64,000 nucleotides of DNA from Clostridia bacterium (GCA_029007295.1 JAQXHN010000018.1:39006-103005), one strand, 5' to 3'. Shown: positions 2,468 to 11,513, numbered from the stretch's first letter. Numbers and translations: made by a program. The notes: generated by a model not told the origin, from the letters alone.

Positions 2468-3025
2468 ATGACCTGGCAGGAGCTTGAAAACGAATGCATA
2501 ACGTGCAGAAAATGCGAGCTTTGCAAAACGAGAACCAATACCGTTTTCGGCGCCGGAAACAAAAACGCCGACCTTATGTTCGTCGGCGAAGCGCCCGGCG
2601 AAAACGAGGATCTTACGGGCATTCCGTTTGTAGGAAGAGCAGGAAAGCTCTTTGATAAATATCTTGAAGCCGTCGGCATACGGCGAGACAGCGTATATAT
2701 TGCAAACATGCTTAAATGCCGTCCGCCGAAAAACCGCGATCCCCTGCCCTCCGAGCAGGATATGTGCATTGAATATTTAAGAAATCAGGTTAGGCTTATC
2801 TCGCCGAAGCTGATAGTCTGCCTCGGAAGAATCTCGGCAATACGCCTTATCGACCCGCATTTTATGATCACAAGGCAACACGGAATTTGGTACAAAAAGG
2901 GTAGCTTTGAGATGTGCGCCGTATATCATCCGTCTCTATTGCTTCGCGACCCGCGCAAAAAGGAGGACATGCTCACGGACATGAAGGTCGTCAAGGCCAA
3001 GCTTGACGCCCTGAGCGTAAATTGA
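2468..3025 (+). CDS. Uracil-DNA glycosylase, family 4 (4Fe-4S type)
   Basis: N-terminal Cys cluster (CITCRKCELC) and family-4 motif GEAPGENEDLTGIPFVGRAGKLFD. About 185 aa. Confidence 0.85.
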   Translation: MTWQELENECITCRKCELCKTRTNTVFGAGNKNADLMFVGEAPGENEDLTGIPFVGRAGKLFDKYLEAVGIRRDSVYIANMLKCRPPKNRDPLPSEQDMCIEYLRNQVRLISPKLIVCLGRISAIRLIDPHFMITRQHGIWYKKGSFEMCAVYHPSLLLRDPRKKEDMLTDMKVVKAKLDALSVN

Positions 3026-3972
3026 TTATGAAGGTAGATATCTGGGTTCTTATTTCCACGACGCTCACCATGCTGATTCTGATATGCGTCGGTTATTTCA
3101 GCGCAAAAAAGGGACTGCTTGATGAAAAATTTTCAAAAAAGCTCTCTTCACTGATAGTATACATCTGCCAGCCGGCTCTTTTGGTCGGTTCGCTTATGAA
3201 CGTGGGGTACTCGAAGGAAATGCTCGTTAAGGGCGGTATGATCGTTCTTCTGTCGGCAGGTGTTCACCTTATGAATGTGCTTGTCGCTCTCGGCTTTTCC
3301 GCCCCGATAAAGGATATCAACGAGCGCACGGTTATTTCATATTCGGTAACCTTTTCCAACTGCGCTTTCTTCGGCTTTCCCGTTTTAAAATCGGTTTTCG
3401 GAGACGAGGGCGTTTTCTGGGGCTCGTTTTACTGCATTGTCTTCAACATTCTCGTTTGGACGTGGGGTATGTTTACCTTGTCGAGAGCAAACAAGGAAAT
3501 AAAAATGAATCCGAGGAAAATGTTTGTAAACTTCGGTACTGTCCCCTGCGCTATAGGCATTGTGCTTTACATAACGCAAATGTCCGAAAAAATCCCCAAG
3601 CCGATTACGCTGTCGCTCGATTATCTGTCGGGCTTGTGTACGCCTATTTCCATGCTTATTATCGGTGCTTTACTTGCAAGGCTTCCTTTAAAAAAGGTAT
3701 TCTTTTCGCCTAAGTCGTATTATCTTTGCCTTGTAAAGCTCGTTATATTGCCGGCGATTGTTGCGATTGTGCTTGCGCTTGCCGGTCTTTCAAAGGATTT
3801 GGTTTGCTTCGGCGCATTGATGGCAGGCTTTCCCGTTGCGGCTACCTCGTCGGCGTTCTCTGAGAAGTATTCGATAGCGCCGGAATTTTCCTCGGTGTGC
3901 GTAGGTCTTTCAACGATTCTGTCTGTTGCGACCGTTCCGATTATAGTGACCGCCATAGACAAATTGGTTTAA
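3022..3972 (+). CDS. AEC family (auxin efflux carrier / malate permease-like) membrane transporter
   Basis: Polytopic 316-aa membrane protein. ATGA overlap with the UDG stop. N-terminal MIMKVDIWVLISTTLTMLILICVGYF and two-fold repeat organisation are typical of Mem_trans proteins. Confidence 0.6.
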   Translation: MIMKVDIWVLISTTLTMLILICVGYFSAKKGLLDEKFSKKLSSLIVYICQPALLVGSLMNVGYSKEMLVKGGMIVLLSAGVHLMNVLVALGFSAPIKDINERTVISYSVTFSNCAFFGFPVLKSVFGDEGVFWGSFYCIVFNILVWTWGMFTLSRANKEIKMNPRKMFVNFGTVPCAIGIVLYITQMSEKIPKPITLSLDYLSGLCTPISMLIIGALLARLPLKKVFFSPKSYYLCLVKLVILPAIVAIVLALAGLSKDLVCFGALMAGFPVAATSSAFSEKYSIAPEFSSVCVGLSTILSVATVPIIVTAIDKLV

Positions 3973-4052: not shown

Positions 4053-5795
4053 TTAAAAGTTAAAGGCCTGTTCCGAGGATTCCACAGCTGCAAGACCACT
4101 GGATTGGGAACCGATAAGATCCTCAACCGGAACTCCCGCATCCTCGAAAGCTTCAATCAAAGCCTCGACATCAATTATATTTTGAATGCCGTCTAAGTCA
4201 TCTTCATCTTCAATTCTATATACATTACTGCTATTCGGCATTTTAATATTTGCTTCATCACCGGTTTTTTCAAATGAAACAGCAATGAACGACATACCCG
4301 ATACGGAAAAGTCGAGCTTAATTGCGCCGTCCGTAAATATAACGGCAATATCGAGCTGACCGAGCATCTGCGGGACCTCCCCGCCTAAAGAGTCCGCCGA
4401 CAGCTTGACTGTTCCTCTCGGCGCACCGTCCTCAAAGCCAAAGTCTTCGGTTTCAAAGCTAAATACACTTTCGCCGTAACTTTGAAGTTCAAAATCACCG
4501 GTATATTTATCTTTTTTGCATGTTCCTGTGCCGATAACGGAAACGGTGTTATCGCCGATATACGCTTCAAAGCCGAACTTTCCGTCGTCCTCTGTCACCG
4601 CGTAGCTGAAGATTTCTTCTCCGCCCACAACAATGCGTTCGCCGACAATATCATCATCGTCAAGATAGCTGTAATATTCAATTTCCGGAATACTGCTTAT
4701 TACTTCTTCGTTCTTCAGCTCATCAATGGCTGAATCTATTTCCTGTATTAATTCGGAATATTCAACGCCGCCAAAGCACATCAAAAGGGGTTCAACAATG
4801 TTTTTAATATCCTTATCGTTCTTTACCGTTTCAAGGATTTTTAACAGAATCTCGGCACTTTGCTTCGAGTCGAGCTTAACCGCCATTTCGGTTAATTTCT
4901 GTTCAACCCCGTTAACATTAAGCGAAATGTCCTGAGAAACAGGCTCAAAGGAATCTAAAATAATATCAACATATCTTTCGATTATCTTTTCGATGTCAAT
5001 GTCCTCGGGAAGAGCCTCCTGAAGCATTGATAAGTTTTCAAGCGCATCTTGGTACGAAAGGTCGCCCGAATAATTATCCATTACAGACGAAAGATTCATA
5101 TATATGGGTCGATCCAAAATCTCAGGGACATCCATGATAATAGCATTATCGTTCTGATTATACGCTATTGCGACCGACACTATGTCGGTGGAATTTAACA
5201 CCAACGTGCCTGCAAGCTTTACAACGCCTTCTTCGTCGTCATCGATATCAAGTCCAAGCTTGAATTCTATGTCGTCTAACCAGTCGATATCCTCTTTGGA
5301 ACCGAAACCAAACTGAGAAAGAAGAGCCTTGCCCTGTTCGGCAATATCAAGCTTTACGGAATATTCGCCTTCAATCAATTTTTTCGGGTTAATTTCGTTG
5401 ATTACTTCGGCGTTTGCAATGATACCGGATTCTTTTTCCGCATTCTTAAATTCCTGCTTTTCGGAAATAAACATATCCTTAAATACCGTGAAGTACAGGA
5501 TTGCCGCAACACCGAGAATTAAAACGGGAATTGCAATCGCAAGGAAAATTTTAAGCCCCTTCTTCTTTTTCTTTATCGGCTCCGGTGTAGGTACGGAATT
5601 AAAATACATTTGATTCTGTACAGGATCGACCTGCGGAGCTTCGTTAACGGGCTGTGTATAAGCGGTTCCCGTGTTTACGGCATTGTTGGTTGCCGTATTA
5701 ACCGTTTGTGTCTGCGAAGCGAGCTGAGCTTCGCCGCAATACGGGCAGAATTTTGTTCCCTCGGAAATTTCTTTTCCGCATTTATTGCAAAACAT
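4053..5795 (-). CDS. Zinc-ribbon membrane protein with large acidic extracytoplasmic domain (hypothetical)
   Basis: N-terminal MFCNKCGKEISEGTKFCPYCGE zinc ribbon and a Q/T/N-rich linker. KKKKKGLKIFLAIAIPVLILGVAAILYF is a TM helix. It is followed by ~480 aa of D/E-rich domain with no recognisable motif. Confidence 0.5.
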   Translation of the reverse strand: MFCNKCGKEISEGTKFCPYCGEAQLASQTQTVNTATNNAVNTGTAYTQPVNEAPQVDPVQNQMYFNSVPTPEPIKKKKKGLKIFLAIAIPVLILGVAAILYFTVFKDMFISEKQEFKNAEKESGIIANAEVINEINPKKLIEGEYSVKLDIAEQGKALLSQFGFGSKEDIDWLDDIEFKLGLDIDDDEEGVVKLAGTLVLNSTDIVSVAIAYNQNDNAIIMDVPEILDRPIYMNLSSVMDNYSGDLSYQDALENLSMLQEALPEDIDIEKIIERYVDIILDSFEPVSQDISLNVNGVEQKLTEMAVKLDSKQSAEILLKILETVKNDKDIKNIVEPLLMCFGGVEYSELIQEIDSAIDELKNEEVISSIPEIEYYSYLDDDDIVGERIVVGGEEIFSYAVTEDDGKFGFEAYIGDNTVSVIGTGTCKKDKYTGDFELQSYGESVFSFETEDFGFEDGAPRGTVKLSADSLGGEVPQMLGQLDIAVIFTDGAIKLDFSVSGMSFIAVSFEKTGDEANIKMPNSSNVYRIEDEDDLDGIQNIIDVEALIEAFEDAGVPVEDLIGSQSSGLAAVESSEQAFNF

Positions 5796-5925
5796 GGCAT
5801 ACCTTCCTTAATTGTTATTTTGTATAACAATATAATATAGCAGAATTCAATTTATGTCAAGTAAAAGTTTAAAAAATCCACATAATAACATATTTTCCGA
5901 CGCCGAGAATAAATTACTATTGACT

Positions 5926-5957
5926 TTTTGTCGAAAAAGTTGTATACTTTTTTCGAC
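5926..5957. promoter_or_regulatory. Perfect palindromic operator-like site overlapping a putative promoter of the DUF6088 gene
   Basis: ttgtcgaaaaag-ttgtatac-ctttttcgacaa: 12-bp perfect inverted repeat with an 8-bp spacer, ending 7 nt before the ATG at 5965. Flanked by -35-like ttgact and -10-like tatact. Confidence 0.5.
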
Positions 5958-5964
5958 AAAAATT

Positions 5965-6594
5965 ATGTCAAAAGGAAGTGTCGATTTGAAGCACGGTATT
6001 AGAAAGAAAATCGTTGAAAGAATTTCTTCTCTCGACGACGGATGCGTATTCGTTGTCGGCGATTTTTCCGATATCGCCGAAAGCAAAACAGCCTCTAAAA
6101 CGCTGGCAAGGCTCTGCGAGGAAAAATCAATAGAAAAGCTGATGAGGGGCGTTTACCGTAAAAGCACAGTTGAAAAAGTGGAGCCGGACACCATTGCAAA
6201 AGCGCTTGCAAGGGAAAATGCATGGAAAAGCATTCCCTGCGGCAAAACGGCGCTCCATCTTTCGGGACTTACGAAGGAAAAGCCGAGCATTTGGACTTAT
6301 GTAAGCGACGGAACCTACAGAACCTATTCCGTTATGGGCTATAATATTTCATTTTCGCACACCACGGTCAGAGGCTTTAATATGATGTCCGAAAAAACCG
6401 CGATGATTGTGGAAATTCTCCGCGCCTACGGTGAAAACGCCATACCGTATTCCAAGCTTAAGAGTTTATTTTCATATCTGAAGCCAAGCGAGATAGCCGA
6501 AATTCTCTCGGAAACAAAAAACTGTCCTAAATGGATTTACCTGGCAATAAAAAAACTGTTTATGCACCAAAATACTGTAGAGGAACAAATATGA
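5965..6594 (+). CDS. DUF6088 / AbiEi-like winged-helix protein (putative DNA-binding regulator or type IV antitoxin-like)
   Basis: MSKGSVDLKHGIRKKIVERISSLDDGCVFVVGDFSDIAESKTASKTLARLCEEKSIEKLMRGVYRK matches the DUF6088/AbiEi_4 N-terminal pattern (VF..DF.D......A.SRL...G.L.R..RGVY). The stop overlaps the fakA start (ATGA). The upstream part of the listed ORF (5854-5964) was judged non-coding. Confidence 0.5.
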   Translation: MSKGSVDLKHGIRKKIVERISSLDDGCVFVVGDFSDIAESKTASKTLARLCEEKSIEKLMRGVYRKSTVEKVEPDTIAKALARENAWKSIPCGKTALHLSGLTKEKPSIWTYVSDGTYRTYSVMGYNISFSHTTVRGFNMMSEKTAMIVEILRAYGENAIPYSKLKSLFSYLKPSEIAEILSETKNCPKWIYLAIKKLFMHQNTVEEQI

Positions 6595-8246
6595 ACGATA
6601 CACAGATATTAAACGGCACGATGTATATGAACATGATAAGAGGCGGTGCCGCAAACCTTAATAAAAACAGAGTTGCGGTAAACGAGCTCAATGTTTTTCC
6701 CGTTCCCGACGGCGATACGGGCGACAACATGTTCATGACCATAAATTCAGGCGCCGTTAATTTGGAAAACGAAGACGCCCCGATAGGGGAAATTTCAAGT
6801 GAGATAGCGCACCGTATGCTGTTGGGTGCGCGAGGAAATTCAGGGGTAATTCTTTCAAGGATTTTTGCGGGAATCGCAAACGGCCTTGCAGGCTGCAGCG
6901 ACGCCGATATTCCCACCCTTGCCCATGCGCTCGAATGCGGCACGGACGAAGCTTATAAATCGGTCTCCTCTCCTGTTGAGGGCACTATTTTAACGGTTTG
7001 CCGCGAAAGCGTGCAATATGCCAATTCCAAGCTTAAGGACACTCCCACTCTGAAAAAATATTTTGAAAATCTGTTTACCGAAGCGCAGAACTCTCTTGAG
7101 AGAACTCCGAGCCTGCTGGAGGAGCTTGCACAGGCAGGAGTTGTAGACAGCGGCGGCGCCGGATTTCTCTTTATTGTTGACGGAATGAAAAATGCGCTGA
7201 ACAATGAAATAATTCCCGACGGTGAAGCAAGCTCCTCGGATCAGCCGAAGAATATCGATTTCTCCCTGTTCACCGAGGACAGCGAATGCACCTACGGCTA
7301 CTGTACCGAGCTTTTACTCCGTTTGCAGAGCGCAAAGGTCGATGTCAAAAGCTTTGACGAAAATATCATCGGCGATTTCCTGAACAAGGTCGGCGACTCG
7401 GTGGTTTTGGTTCGCAGCGGCTCCATTGTGAAGATTCACGTTCATACCAAGGCTCCCGGCGACATACTTAACGAATGTCAGAAATACGGTGAGTTTCTCA
7501 CCGTAAAAACGGAAAATATGCAGCTCCAGCATAACGGTGCCGCAAAGCCTAAAAATATTACTCTTAAAACCGAAAATATACGAAAAAGCTTTGCAAGCGT
7601 CGTCTGCTGTAACGGAAAAGGAATGATGGATCTGTTCTCCTCGCTCGGCGCCGATTATATTGTTGACGGCGGCCAGAGCATGAATCCGTCGACAGAGGAT
7701 TTCCTTTGCGCCTTTGACAAGGTCAACGCAGATAAAATATTCGTTTTTCCGAATAATAAAAACATCATCTTGGCGGCAAAGCAGGCGGGCTCCATGTACG
7801 AAAAATCCGAAGTATACATCGTAAACACAAAAACAGTGGGAGAGGGCTACGCCGCATTTTCAATGCTCGATACCTCTTCCGGAGACGCTACGGCAATAAC
7901 CGAGGAATTAAACGAGATCGCAAGCAACGTTACCACCGGTATGGTTTGCCGCTCTACAAAATCCGCACGCATAGACGGAATCGACATAGTTAAGGGTGAT
8001 TATATCGGAATTGCAAACGGAAGCATCGTAACGAGCACCGCCGATTGCTCCGACACCGTTAAAGCTCTTTGCGAAAAGGTAAAGGCGTTTGAAAGCGATG
8101 TTTTAATTGTTCTTTGCGGGGAGGATTCTAAATCCGACGAGGCCGATGCGCTATGTGCCCATTTGCAAAAGAAATATCCCAAAACCGAAATAATTATGTT
8201 AAAGGCAGACCAGCCTGTATATGATTATATATTGATTTTTGAATGA
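6591..8246 (+). CDS. fakA: DAK2-domain fatty acid kinase catalytic subunit (FakA / YloV family)
   Basis: MNDTQILNGTMYMNMIRGGAANLNKNRVAVNELNVFPVPDGDTGDNMFMT...GARGNSGVILS matches the FakA/YloV N-terminal Dak2 domain. About 551 aa. Followed by a DegV gene. Confidence 0.8.
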   Translation: MNDTQILNGTMYMNMIRGGAANLNKNRVAVNELNVFPVPDGDTGDNMFMTINSGAVNLENEDAPIGEISSEIAHRMLLGARGNSGVILSRIFAGIANGLAGCSDADIPTLAHALECGTDEAYKSVSSPVEGTILTVCRESVQYANSKLKDTPTLKKYFENLFTEAQNSLERTPSLLEELAQAGVVDSGGAGFLFIVDGMKNALNNEIIPDGEASSSDQPKNIDFSLFTEDSECTYGYCTELLLRLQSAKVDVKSFDENIIGDFLNKVGDSVVLVRSGSIVKIHVHTKAPGDILNECQKYGEFLTVKTENMQLQHNGAAKPKNITLKTENIRKSFASVVCCNGKGMMDLFSSLGADYIVDGGQSMNPSTEDFLCAFDKVNADKIFVFPNNKNIILAAKQAGSMYEKSEVYIVNTKTVGEGYAAFSMLDTSSGDATAITEELNEIASNVTTGMVCRSTKSARIDGIDIVKGDYIGIANGSIVTSTADCSDTVKALCEKVKAFESDVLIVLCGEDSKSDEADALCAHLQKKYPKTEIIMLKADQPVYDYILIFE

Positions 8247-8255
8247 GGTGATAAT

Positions 8256-9125
8256 ATGTTACAGTTATTTTCGGACACAGACCTTGATTTAACTCCTGAA
8301 AAGGCAAGGGAATACGGCTATAAGCTAATCAGCATGCCGTTCAGCATCGACGGTGAAACGACCTATCCCTACGCCGATTGCGATACCTTTGACATGCACG
8401 CATTTTACGAAAAGCTGAGAAACGGAGTCGTTCCTAACACCAGCGCCATTTCGGAAGAAAGCTACCGCAATTATTTTGAACCGTGCTTTGCAAACGGCGA
8501 CGATATCCTTTACGTGCATTTTTCACGCAAAATGTCGGCAACTTTTGAAAACATGGACAGAGCCGTTAAAAGCTTGAAGGAGAAGTATCCCGAAAGAAAA
8601 TTCTATACCGTTGACACCAAGGGTATTACAATTATCGGTTATATTATCGCCCTTTGTATCGGCGATATGGTCAAGCAGGGAAAGGGAATTGACGAGATCC
8701 TCGAATGGTCCGAAACCGAAATTGATAAATACGCCGTTTACTTCTTCTCCGACGATTTAAAATTCTTCCACCACAGCGGGCGTGTAAGCGGTCTTGCCGC
8801 CACGATGGGTACGATGCTCGGCGTACGCCCCATTATTTATATGAGCTCCGAGGGAAAAATGGAAAGCATCGGTAAGGAAAGGGGAAGACAGCGGGCTATT
8901 AACCGACTGATTCATGCAGTTGAGGAAATAGGCGATGACGTTGCAAATCACAGAGTCGTTATCGGAAATACGGACAACCGTGAGATTGCACAGCAGATTG
9001 CCGACGCTCTGTATGAAAAATACGGCAAAAACACCGACATAACAATAATCGACGTTAACCCCACCGCCGGCAGTCACTGCGGTCCCGACTCCATCGGCAT
9101 TGCATTCCACTCAAAACACAGGTAA
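8256..9125 (+). CDS. fakB: DegV family fatty-acid-binding protein (FakB-like)
   Basis: 289 aa with the DegV fold signature (LISMPFSIDGETTYPY...HCGPDSIGIAFH). Lies immediately downstream of fakA. Confidence 0.8.
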   Translation: MLQLFSDTDLDLTPEKAREYGYKLISMPFSIDGETTYPYADCDTFDMHAFYEKLRNGVVPNTSAISEESYRNYFEPCFANGDDILYVHFSRKMSATFENMDRAVKSLKEKYPERKFYTVDTKGITIIGYIIALCIGDMVKQGKGIDEILEWSETEIDKYAVYFFSDDLKFFHHSGRVSGLAATMGTMLGVRPIIYMSSEGKMESIGKERGRQRAINRLIHAVEEIGDDVANHRVVIGNTDNREIAQQIADALYEKYGKNTDITIIDVNPTAGSHCGPDSIGIAFHSKHR

Positions 9126-9135
9126 AAAGAGAATT

Positions 9136-10269
9136 ATGATTGAAATAAGAGAAGCGACGACAAAAAAAGAGCAGAAGAATTTTTTGAATTTTCCGCTTGA
9201 AATGTATAAAAACAATCCCTGCTTCGTACCGCCCCTTTATTCGAGCGAAAAGAAAATTTTCGGAAAAAGCTACTCATACTATGATACCTGCGAGGCGGTA
9301 TATTACAACGCATACAGGGACGGCGTCATGGCAGGCAGAATCTCGGGAATTTTACAGCATACTTCAAATAAAATCAGAAATCAAAAGCGAGTCCGCTTTA
9401 CCCGCTTCGACTGCATTGACGACGTTGATACGGCTCGGGCGCTCTTCGGAGCAGTCGAAAAATGGGCGCTTTCAAAAGGCATGGACACGATTTGCGGTCC
9501 CTTGGGCTTTTCCGACCTTGAAAGAGAAGGGCTGTTAATCGAAGGCTTTGACGAGCTTTCCACCTTCGAGGAGCAGTATAATGCCGAATATTACGGCAGA
9601 CTAATCGAAGAGTGCGGTTATAATAAAGAGGTGGATTGGATTGAGAGTAAGATTTACCCGCCTAAGGATACCGAATCGCTCGATAAAATGAAAGACTATA
9701 TAATGAAGAGGTATTCTCTTCGCTTCGGAGAGGCAAAAAACATAAACGAATTTATCAAAAAATACAAAAACGACTTTTTCCGTCTGCTGGACGAAGGCTA
9801 TGCCGACATTTACGGGTCTGTTCCTTTTACCGAGTCCATGAAAAAAGAAATAATATCAAATTTCAAGCTCGTTTGCGATACGGAGCATGTTGCCGTTATT
9901 CTCGACAAGGATAACCGTGCGGTATGTATGGGCTTTTGCATTCCGTCAATTTCCCGCGCGGTACAGAAATCAAAAGGGCATTTAACTCCCTGCGCCATAG
10001 TCAAAATTTTAAAATCCGTCCGCCGGCCGGAAATAATCGACCTCGGCCTGATTGCCGTAGACAAGGAATATCTTAACCGAGGAATCAGTATAATTTTTTG
10101 TGCGGAAATTGCAAGAATGCTTAAGAAGCCGTACACAAAATACGCCGAAACCAATCTGAATTTAGAGGACAATCACTCAATACGTAATATGTGGAAGCGC
10201 TTTGAGCAAATCGAACATAAGAAGCGACGCAGTTATGTAAAATATATAGGGGAGAACGTAAATGCGTAA
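9136..10269 (+). CDS. GNAT-fold acyltransferase-like protein of unknown specificity
   Basis: MIEIREATTKKEQKNFLNFPLEMYKNNPCFVPPLYSSEKK... This N-terminal motif recurs in proteins usually annotated as GNAT family N-acetyltransferase. RBS aaagagaa is present. The 3' end overlaps plsX by 8 nt. Confidence 0.4.
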   Translation: MIEIREATTKKEQKNFLNFPLEMYKNNPCFVPPLYSSEKKIFGKSYSYYDTCEAVYYNAYRDGVMAGRISGILQHTSNKIRNQKRVRFTRFDCIDDVDTARALFGAVEKWALSKGMDTICGPLGFSDLEREGLLIEGFDELSTFEEQYNAEYYGRLIEECGYNKEVDWIESKIYPPKDTESLDKMKDYIMKRYSLRFGEAKNINEFIKKYKNDFFRLLDEGYADIYGSVPFTESMKKEIISNFKLVCDTEHVAVILDKDNRAVCMGFCIPSISRAVQKSKGHLTPCAIVKILKSVRRPEIIDLGLIAVDKEYLNRGISIIFCAEIARMLKKPYTKYAETNLNLEDNHSIRNMWKRFEQIEHKKRRSYVKYIGENVNA

Positions 10270-11296
10270 AATTGTAATTGACTGCGCAGGCGGCGACAAT
10301 TCGCCCAACGCACCGATAGAGGGAGCGCTTTCCGCTCTGGAAAAGTTTCCGGATTTGTACGTAATACTGTGCGGAAAGGAAGAGGAAATATCAAGTATTC
10401 TGAGTGAAAAAGCTTATGACGGCGGCAGAGTTGAAATATTAAACGCAAGCGACGTCATCACCTGCCACGATAAGCCTACGGACGCTGTCAGATTAAAGAA
10501 GGACAGCTCTATGATGAGGTCTCTCAAGCTTTTGCGCGAGGATGACGGAATATTCGGTATGGTCTCCACCGGGTCAACGGGAGCCCTTGTTTGCGGCGCA
10601 ACCCTGAGAATCGGCAGAATTAAAGGCGTTATCCGTCCGGCCTTCTGCCCGATACTTCCGACAATGGACGGCGGTATCGTAGGCATATGCGACACCGGCG
10701 CAAATATTGACATCACACCGGAGCATTTGAGACAGTTTGCGGTAATGGGCAGTCTTTACCTACGCTGTGCCTTCGGCGTGGAAAGCCCCAACGTCGGACT
10801 TTTGAATATAGGAACGGAGGCCGAAAAGGGCGATGCCCTAAGAAAGGAAGCCTACCCGCTGCTTTCGGAAACAGAGGAAATTCGCTTCGGCGGAAATATG
10901 GAAGCAAGAGAGCTTCTCGAGGGTAAATTCGACCTTGTTTGCTGTGACGGATTTTCCGGGAACGTTCTGATTAAAGCTACCGAGGGAGCTTGTCTTGAAA
11001 TGCTGAAAAAGCTGAAAAAGGATATTTTTTCCAGTTGGAAAAACAAGCTCGGCGCATTTATTATGAGAAAAATGTTCGCCGAAACAAAGGAATTTATGAA
11101 TTACCAAAATTACGGCGGCAGTGTTCTTCTCGGCACCTCAAAGGTAATAGTAAAGGGACACGGCTCCAGCGACGCACGCGCCGTTTGCGCCTGTATTTCT
11201 CAGGCATACCGTATGGAGAGTGCAAGCTACGTCGAATGCGTCGAAGACGCACTTTTGAAAATCGAACAAAGAAACAGGGAGAAAGAAAATGTATAA
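10262..11296 (+). CDS. plsX: Phosphate acyltransferase PlsX
   Basis: MRKIVIDCAGGDNSPNAPIEGAL...MVSTGSTGALV is canonical PlsX. 344 aa. Confidence 0.9.
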   Translation: MRKIVIDCAGGDNSPNAPIEGALSALEKFPDLYVILCGKEEEISSILSEKAYDGGRVEILNASDVITCHDKPTDAVRLKKDSSMMRSLKLLREDDGIFGMVSTGSTGALVCGATLRIGRIKGVIRPAFCPILPTMDGGIVGICDTGANIDITPEHLRQFAVMGSLYLRCAFGVESPNVGLLNIGTEAEKGDALRKEAYPLLSETEEIRFGGNMEARELLEGKFDLVCCDGFSGNVLIKATEGACLEMLKKLKKDIFSSWKNKLGAFIMRKMFAETKEFMNYQNYGGSVLLGTSKVIVKGHGSSDARAVCACISQAYRMESASYVECVEDALLKIEQRNREKENV

Positions 11297-11513
11297 CGAA
11301 CTGAAAAAGGCACTCGCAAAGCAGCTTCGCATAGACGAGTCGGCAATCGTGCCGGAATCGAAAATAATCGACGATTTGGGAGCCGACTCGCTGGATGTCT
11401 TGCAGCTTTTAATGACGATAGAAGAGGAATACGGCATAACCATTCCGGACGAAGCGCTGGCGGAATTCAAGACGGTTTCGGATATTTCCGAATACCTTGA
11501 TTCAAGACGCTGA
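11289..11513 (+). CDS. acpP: Acyl carrier protein
   Basis: 74 aa with the LGADSLDVLQLLMTIEEEYGITIPDE phosphopantetheine-attachment motif (DSL). Confidence 0.85.
   Translation: MYNELKKALAKQLRIDESAIVPESKIIDDLGADSLDVLQLLMTIEEEYGITIPDEALAEFKTVSDISEYLDSRR

Follow-up and report, generated by a model that had tools for sequence, protein, structure and literature searches.

A putative AbiEi-family autorepressor at the head of a fatty-acid kinase/PlsX operon in Clostridia

Why does a gene of a type normally paired with a toxin stand directly ahead of the genes for fatty-acid kinase, with a palindrome in its own promoter? The question is raised by a 64-kb stretch of DNA from a Clostridia bacterium (hereafter the window, meaning the whole stretch that was analysed). 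A preliminary description had noted a winged-helix (wHTH) gene coupled to fakA and fakB. It was taken there for a co-opted repressor of exogenous fatty-acid use, with a degenerate toxin-antitoxin relic as the alternative. We followed up this description by computational analysis of the gene, its promoter, its operon and its relatives.

The gene, its product and its operon

The features of the locus are collected in Table 1. The stop codon at 6594 is as first described, and the start probably lies further downstream than was thought. We consider TTG 5986 rather than ATG 5965 the most likely start, because AGGAAG lies 7 nt upstream of it, no Shine-Dalgarno sequence precedes ATG 5965 and the TTG is where every homologue starts. 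On these grounds ATG 5965 was set aside, and the database start at ATG 5854 (246 aa, P0001) was also rejected for TTG 5986. A terminator-like hairpin inside the 5' part of the coding sequence overlaps conserved codons and is therefore probably due to chance.

Table 1. Coordinates of the features of the locus, counted from the first letter of the window
Feature	Position	Strand	Basis or remark
Divergent promoter-like site, TTGACA-17-TATTAT	5832-5860	-	11/12, strong
-35 hexamer, TTGACT	5920-5925	+	consensus scan, 10/12 matches at 17-nt spacing
Left operator arm, TTTTTGTCGAAAAA	5925-5938	.	perfect inverted repeat, inside promoter spacer
-10 hexamer, TATACT	5943-5948	+	consensus scan
Right operator arm, TTTTTCGACAAAAA	5949-5962	.	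perfect inverted repeat
Shine-Dalgarno-like AGGAAG	5973-5978	+	7 nt 5' of TTG 5986, read from sequence
DUF6088/AbiEi-fold wHTH regulator, 202 aa, TTG start (most likely), TGA 6592-6594	5986-6594	+	Pfam, homologue alignment, AF2, Foldseek
Terminator-like hairpin, 12 pairs then CGATTTTTCC	6032-6059	+	inside 5' part of the DUF6088 coding sequence
fakA, 551 aa	6591-8246	+	Pfam Dak2, FakA-like_M, FakA-like_C
fakB, DegV family, 289 aa	8256-9125	+	Pfam DegV, E 7e-56
GNAT-like gene, 377 aa	9136-10269	+	fixed operon member, syntenic in relatives; tag PUB34_02710
plsX	10262-11296	+	Pfam FA_synthesis, E 2e-92; 8-nt overlap with GNAT-like gene
acpP, 74 aa	11289-11513	+	read from sequence; 8-nt overlap with plsX

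The product had been assigned to the DUF6088/AbiEi type, and this assignment held at the level of both profile and fold. Pfam identified it as DUF6088 (PF19570) over profile positions 1-167 of 172, with an E value of 6.3e-19 and 68.8 bits against a cut-off of 25. The AbiEi profiles of Pfam stayed below threshold (AbiEi_4, 15.9 vs 25; AbiEi_3_N, 14.3 vs 26), FhaA_N gave a sub-threshold Pfam match only, and the NCBIfam model TAA_AbiEi (NF047376) reached 18.5 bits against a cut-off of 150. An AlphaFold (AF2) model with eight input sequences had a pLDDT of 88.5 and a pTM of 0.80. When it was searched with Foldseek, the best PDB match was AbiEi of S. agalactiae (6y8q), matched over the full length with an E value of 5.5e-5 and a probability of 1.00; Rv2827c of M. 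tuberculosis (1zel, probability 1.00) came third. The TM-score was only 0.44, which is consistent with the variable domain orientation of AbiEi (PMC7319586). In the model, the wHTH is followed by one helix, then by four strands, the first two of which are separated by a short helix, and finally by six helices. If this short helix is left aside, the order matches that of the AbiEi C-terminal domain, which has one helix, four strands and six helices (PMC7319586). Profile searches found no relevant PDB sequence link to a solved AbiEi, 6y8q included. The product is thus an AbiEi-fold protein according to its structural model, and by sequence it belongs to DUF6088 and not to the curated AbiEi families.

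The whole unit, DUF6088-fakA-fakB-GNAT-like-plsX-acpP, comprises six genes and spans 5986-11513. Its genes are separated by gaps of at most 10 nt or overlap by 4-8 nt, and they are probably transcribed as a single polycistronic mRNA. Consensus matching alone gave internal promoter-like sites at 7714-7741 in fakA (10/12) and weaker ones further on. The translational coupling to fakA was confirmed: the TGA of the regulator (6592-6594) overlaps the ATG of fakA (6591-6593), forming ATGA at 6591-6594. Neither Pfam nor NCBIfam gave a match to the protein encoded by the fourth gene. Its homologues in Clostridia number more than 6000; some of them are named N-acetyltransferase and a few carry PF00583. 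Its place between the fak genes and plsX suggests a candidate role in acyl transfer. Among relatives, a PP-binding gene occupies the acpP position in L001, L007, L094, L215 and L218. The gene does head fakA-fakB, as the reading of a regulator of exogenous fatty-acid use had assumed; the unit also has the GNAT-like gene, plsX and acpP, however. Since plsX and acpP are included, the gene is better read as a regulator over the acyl-phosphate/PlsX node of phospholipid synthesis and not of exogenous fatty-acid use alone.

An inverted repeat within the promoter

The intergenic region that holds the promoter extends from 5796 to 5985. In a consensus scan of the + strand from 5700 to the fakA start, TTGACT-17-TATACT was the sole sigma-70-like site. 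The inverted repeat had been described as perfect, with 12-bp arms and an N8 spacer. A perfect repeat is present, but the inner pair g5939/t5948 of that version is non-complementary; the true arms are 14 nt long and 100% complementary, and their 10-nt spacer places them on both sides of the -10 box. The left arm fills the 17-nt promoter spacer and the right arm begins immediately 3' of the -10 box, where it would cover the expected transcription start.

Repeats of this kind, perfect over arms of 14 nt or more and with no more than 14 nt between them, are rare in the window. There are three distinct ones, as compared to a chance expectation of 0.1 per 64 kb (mean of first-order Markov simulations), and the other two, at ~55430 and ~59835, are located where genes end and resemble terminators. 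The full palindrome was found once in the window with three mismatches tolerated, and in 0 of 100 shuffles; further operator copies were absent from the 64 kb even at this tolerance. Single half-sites were about as frequent in the window as expected by chance (8 found, 4.8 expected) and gave no sign of more targets. Half-site matches elsewhere in the fak-clade loci, which have short flanks, were scattered singletons, and no added targets were indicated there either.

We also scanned metagenomes with the operator-like pattern TGTCGAAAAN{10,14}TTTTCGACA. The pattern was too unspecific and the scan was uninformative. The loci listed, at least 80 (L095-L174), were all long hairpins, most of them with a G+C-rich centre and terminator-like, and none of them had a DUF6088 gene beside the match. 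In metagenomes, TGTCGAAAA...TTTTCGACA recurs as the outer part of long hairpins, for example TGTCGAAAAAGTCCATCCGGACTTTTTCGACA, which was seen in at least six contigs. Such hairpins are probably terminators with no relation to DUF6088.

On the opposite strand, the strong divergent promoter-like site of Table 1 lies 60 nt from the -35 hexamer of the regulator. It faces a gene for a zinc-ribbon membrane protein (4053-5795, - strand), which is not kept beside the operon in relatives. Further away on that strand, a THF riboswitch (RF01831, 82 bits) at 2225-2323 precedes an ORF of 463 aa (788-2179).

Relatives beside fak genes and beside AbiEii

A scan that took one genome per species yielded 80 loci. 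They were classed by tblastn, using the window's own proteins and AbiEii from locus L003 as queries. In 17 of the 80 loci a fak gene comes next (fakA in 16, fakB in one); AbiEii comes next in about 50, and 13 have no classifiable neighbour. One contig, L016, ends at the gene. The usual order after a fak-linked regulator is fakA-fakB-GNAT-plsX, and L023 has no GNAT-like gene. The single fakB case is a Clostridiales MAG (L031, 6001-7533), in which DUF6088 is followed by fakB-GNAT-plsX with no fakA between. Metagenome contigs carry the same operon, often ending in acpP. All fak-linked examples are MAGs or metagenome contigs, and about 30 examined relatives precede fakA or fakB. The gene-operator pair that had been described upstream of fakA is thus conserved, in 17 further species-level genomes and several metagenome contigs. 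A 4-nt overlap between the regulator gene and fakA is shared by the window, L094, L215, L217 and L218. The genes upstream of the regulator vary from contig to contig, indicating that regulator and fak operon travel together; in L094, an rve-family integrase gene (2576-3541) lies directly upstream of the DUF6088-fakA operon.

Fak-linked proteins are 38-47% identical to the window protein and AbiEii-linked proteins 32-41%; these ranges overlap, so that identity alone cannot separate the two groups. In a neighbour-joining (NJ) tree of 84 proteins, a single bipartition set the fak-linked proteins together with that of L016 apart from the rest, with the support of all 200 bootstraps. The tree has no root; on grounds of parsimony, the fak clade would be derived from toxin-linked ancestors. 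All examined contigs of sufficient length (~30) have an intact regulator ORF. In eight close fak-linked pairs, dN/dS was 0.04-0.12, revealing purifying selection that includes the C-terminal domain. These values indicate that the gene is maintained and is not decaying.

No toxin partner had been seen next to the gene, and none was found by us: tblastn detected no AbiEii-like sequence in the 64-kb window, nor does an AbiEii gene follow the regulator in any examined fak-clade relative. The wHTH is equally variable in both clades (1.36 vs 1.39 bits per column). In contrast, the loop at residues 93-101 (counted from TTG) reads GLSTQ[VI]P and is near-invariant in toxin-linked proteins (0.31 bits), whereas in fak-linked proteins it is GL-x4-P (1.78 bits), the x4 stretch being free of conserved residues, with GLTKEKP in the window. 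The C-terminal-domain residues N91, K124, N128, E130 and K170, invariant in toxin-linked proteins, are also free to vary in the fak clade. Fak-clade proteins are 5-7 residues shorter in the wing/linker, and S37, W58, N78, T107 and Y148 are conserved specifically in them.

In AbiEi, loop residues D85/E86/I87 insert into the active site of AbiEii and are required for antitoxicity, and the equivalent in MenA3 is the alpha5-beta4 loop (bioRxiv 10.64898/2026.01.19.700257). The variable loop of the AF2 model lies after alpha5 and before the next strand. The GLSTQVP loop may therefore be the equivalent of AbiEi D85-I87; this equivalence is based on the order of secondary-structure elements, because the residues are not alignable to 6y8q by sequence. 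As judged from its sequence, the regulator lacks two hallmarks of a toxin-antitoxin module, namely a toxin next to it and the loop of an antitoxin.

Loss of the loop also predicted the neighbourhood of the gene. A profile of the fak clade retrieved 79 clusters (90% identity) without the toxin-type loop, which filled nearly all top ranks; clusters with this loop scored 221 bits and below. Four clusters from different subgroups were then picked solely for the missing loop. All four directly precede fakA, three of them with a 4-nt overlap, and all four promoters carry the half-site or a close variant. DUF6088 is a small family: when 1.84 billion cluster representatives were searched exhaustively, 925 relatives were found at E<=0.001 and 35 at E<=1e-30. 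The toxin-type loop is missing in 27 of these 35 closest representatives.

The search also revealed DUF6088 proteins of 329-359 aa without the GLSTQ loop (P0273, P0281, P0294, P0305, P0309, P0310, P0313, P0316, P0326 and P0340). Their C-terminal extension of about 130-150 aa had no Pfam match in the four that were scanned (P0281, P0305, P0309 and P0340). Three further proteins, P0280, P0283 and P0333, reach 432-523 aa. Together these long proteins may form a second lineage of the family that is independent of a toxin.

The promoters of the family have a common layout. In toxin-linked and fak-linked loci alike, the -35 is followed by a half-site, the -10 and the reverse complement of the half-site, and in toxin-linked DUF6088 loci the layout continues with the ribosome-binding site after the second half-site. 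The half-site varies by subclade, with both arms changing together, and tracks the sequence of the recognition helix. Helix TETIRRNLNRL goes with half-site TGTCCCGAATA, LPTIRKCLGRQ with TGTCACGAT, [AE]A[TA][VI]RK[AV]LSRL with GTCACAAA, KKTASVCLTRL with CGTTGAAAAA and, in the fak clade, KT[VA]SK.L.RL with TGTCGAAAA. Helix and half-site come closest to those of the fak clade in the toxin-linked subclade that lies nearest to it in the tree; the half-site there, CGTTGAAAAA, differs from the fak-clade core by one base.

Among fak-linked relatives, TTGAC of the -35 is conserved, and the core TGTCGAAAA is exact at the left-arm promoter position in 17 of 22 promoters. Eight loci share an identical 38-nt promoter/operator, with a coding dS of 0.35-1.9 among their measured pairs. 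The right arm is less uniform. It is comparable to that of the window in L011, L023, L044 and L218, takes the weaker form TTCTTGACA in eight further loci, and is weak or not evident in five (L016, L020, L021, L022 and L024). The two-site palindrome is therefore not universal in fak-linked promoters.

Two loci have the operon without the regulator. In L093 (Eubacterium ruminantium type), neither the regulator gene nor the motif is present. L092 (GCA_963425865.1) has fakA-fakB-GNAT-plsX without a DUF6088 gene or a remnant of one, and its promoter (4320-4450) keeps TATTGACTTTTTGTCGAA, 18 nt identical to the -35 and left half-site of the window, with the right arm gone. The retained half-site could mean that the gene was lost recently, that a regulator acts in trans, or that the half-site has another role.

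A proposed autorepressor and its rivals

We consider it probable that the gene encodes a domesticated AbiEi-family autorepressor of the fatty-acid kinase/PlsX operon, with DNA binding and repression as its putative activities. The co-opted AbiEi-like repressor proposed in the preliminary description thus gains support, still as a putative one, from synteny, the clade, dN/dS, the operator and the loss of the loop. The ancestor would have been the antitoxin of an AbiEi/AbiEii toxin-antitoxin module. Its gene, with its own promoter/operator, would have come to lie directly ahead of fakA-fakB-GNAT-plsX-acpP, and the toxin and the toxin-contacting loop would have been lost. Two protein molecules, as modelled on AbiEi, would bind the half-sites TGTCGAAAA and TTTTCGACA, which flank the -10 box and are 24 bp apart from centre to centre. 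Binding would span the -10 box and the transcription start and would occlude RNA polymerase. In this way the regulator would repress its own synthesis and, since it is the first cistron and translationally coupled to fakA, that of the whole six-gene operon. Such negative feedback could provide a homeostatic setting of the fatty-acid kinase/PlsX/ACP node. Because plsX and acpP are as a rule essential genes, it is implausible that the operon is fully repressed, and buffering of expression is more likely than an on/off switch. It is possible, but on present evidence doubtful, that the C-terminal domain is in addition a sensor of membrane-lipid supply and that the protein represents a toxin-antitoxin-derived class of fatty-acid-responsive repressors. 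The signal would then be acyl-phosphate, acyl-ACP, free fatty acid, or the occupancy of FakA/FakB.

The closest characterized counterpart is AbiEi of S. agalactiae (6Y8Q; COG5340), which shares with the window protein the wHTH and C-terminal domain, the position as first gene of the operon and the inverted repeats inside its own promoter. It is a proven autorepressor and binds these repeats, which are 23 bp long, 3 bp apart and 26 bp from centre to centre, as compared to 24 bp here (PMC7319586). The window protein differs from it by sub-threshold sequence similarity, the absence of AbiEii/DUF1814 next to the gene, the loop that is not conserved, and the lipid genes downstream. Rv2827c (1ZEL) is also an AbiEi-family autorepressor, and its repeats straddle the sigma-factor site (PMC7319586). 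In contrast to the window protein, it is larger and toxin-paired, and it binds four repeats with negative cooperativity. AbiE systems are classed as type IV and have lately been proposed to be toxin-antitoxin systems of type VII. Also close are the toxin-linked DUF6088 proteins (PF19570 beside PF08843 AbiEii; for example L003, L025, L036 and L087). They are of the same family and length and have the same promoter/operator layout, but keep GLSTQ[VI]P, the longer wing/linker and an adjoining AbiEii gene.

The preliminary description had drawn a parallel to FapR. In Bacillus subtilis, FapR heads fapR-plsX-fabD-fabG, is autoregulated, combines an HTH with a hot-dog ligand-binding domain and responds to malonyl-CoA. 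The parallel stands as a positional analogy, an autoregulated repressor gene heading a plsX-containing operon (with autoregulation putative here), and not as homology: the Pfam scan of the window product gave no matches besides DUF6088 and sub-threshold AbiEi and FhaA_N, and hence none to FapR or to the MarR family of FabT. FabT, a MarR-family protein of streptococci and enterococci, uses acyl-ACP as co-repressor and controls the fab genes; it couples the supply of fatty acids for the membrane to the exogenous fatty acids that FakAB and PlsX process. It resembles the proposed regulator in being a local repressor at fatty-acid supply and differs in its fold and in acting on fab genes rather than on fakAB-plsX. 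A literature search found no published description of an AbiEi-like protein linked to fakA, DUF6088 in two survey papers only, and no description of the control of exogenous fatty-acid incorporation in gut or rumen Clostridia.

Among other explanations, we regard as improbable that the regulator acts by contact with FakA or another product of the operon, besides or instead of acting on transcription. Its C-terminal domain would then have been re-targeted from the toxin to FakA, an ATP-using kinase. AbiEi itself sets a precedent, as it binds its nucleotidyltransferase partner in a stable complex and triggers auto-phosphorylation of the latter. The 4-nt coupling in the window and in L094, L215, L217 and L218 favours a fixed stoichiometry, and the purifying selection on the C-terminal domain, the residues specific to the fak clade (S37, W58, N78, T107 and Y148) and the wing/linker deletion fit a new partner as well. 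However, the loop by which AbiEi makes contact would correspond to the region where the fak-clade proteins are least conserved, the L031 regulator stands directly before fakB with no adjoining fakA, and the retained wHTH and operator are more simply explained by DNA binding.

Two further explanations leave the fak genes out of the function. Orphan antitoxins are common, and the protein might still serve as an antitoxin, or act as an anti-defence decoy, towards an AbiEii-type toxin whose gene lies elsewhere in the genome or on an incoming element, with its place before fakA incidental. The 64 kb at hand, which are all that is covered of the genome, leave room for a toxin gene outside them. We nevertheless judge this very unlikely: AbiEii is absent from the window, the loop invariant in all toxin-linked relatives is lost, and throughout a deep clade the gene stays in fixed synteny with fakA, whereas the genes upstream vary. 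It is harder still to believe that the gene is a decaying toxin-antitoxin remnant which merely donates a promoter to the fak operon, the conserved spacer sequence serving as promoter context or as a site for some other, unrelated factor. The half-site sequence kept ahead of fakA without a regulator gene in L092 would agree with this. The relic hypothesis was nonetheless rejected on dN/dS; the values of 0.04-0.12, the single deep clade and the fixed synteny contradict it. The ORFs intact in ~30 examined contigs, wHTH conservation equal to that of the toxin-linked clade and the covariation of half-site and recognition helix across the family also speak against a remnant.

If the gene is a domesticated autorepressor, as we think probable, it would be a clear and datable case of toxin-antitoxin domestication, in which the repressor half and its operator were re-used for core metabolism. 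The co-option would have left its trace at the sequence level, in a toxin loop that decays and a DNA-binding domain and operator that persist. The covariation of helix and half-site across DUF6088 subclades offers a ready candidate for a specificity code. For fakAB-plsX-acpP, a candidate regulator can now be named in Clostridia that are abundant in gut and rumen, and if the sensor reading were true, it would fill the role of FapR or FabT in this uncultured clade.
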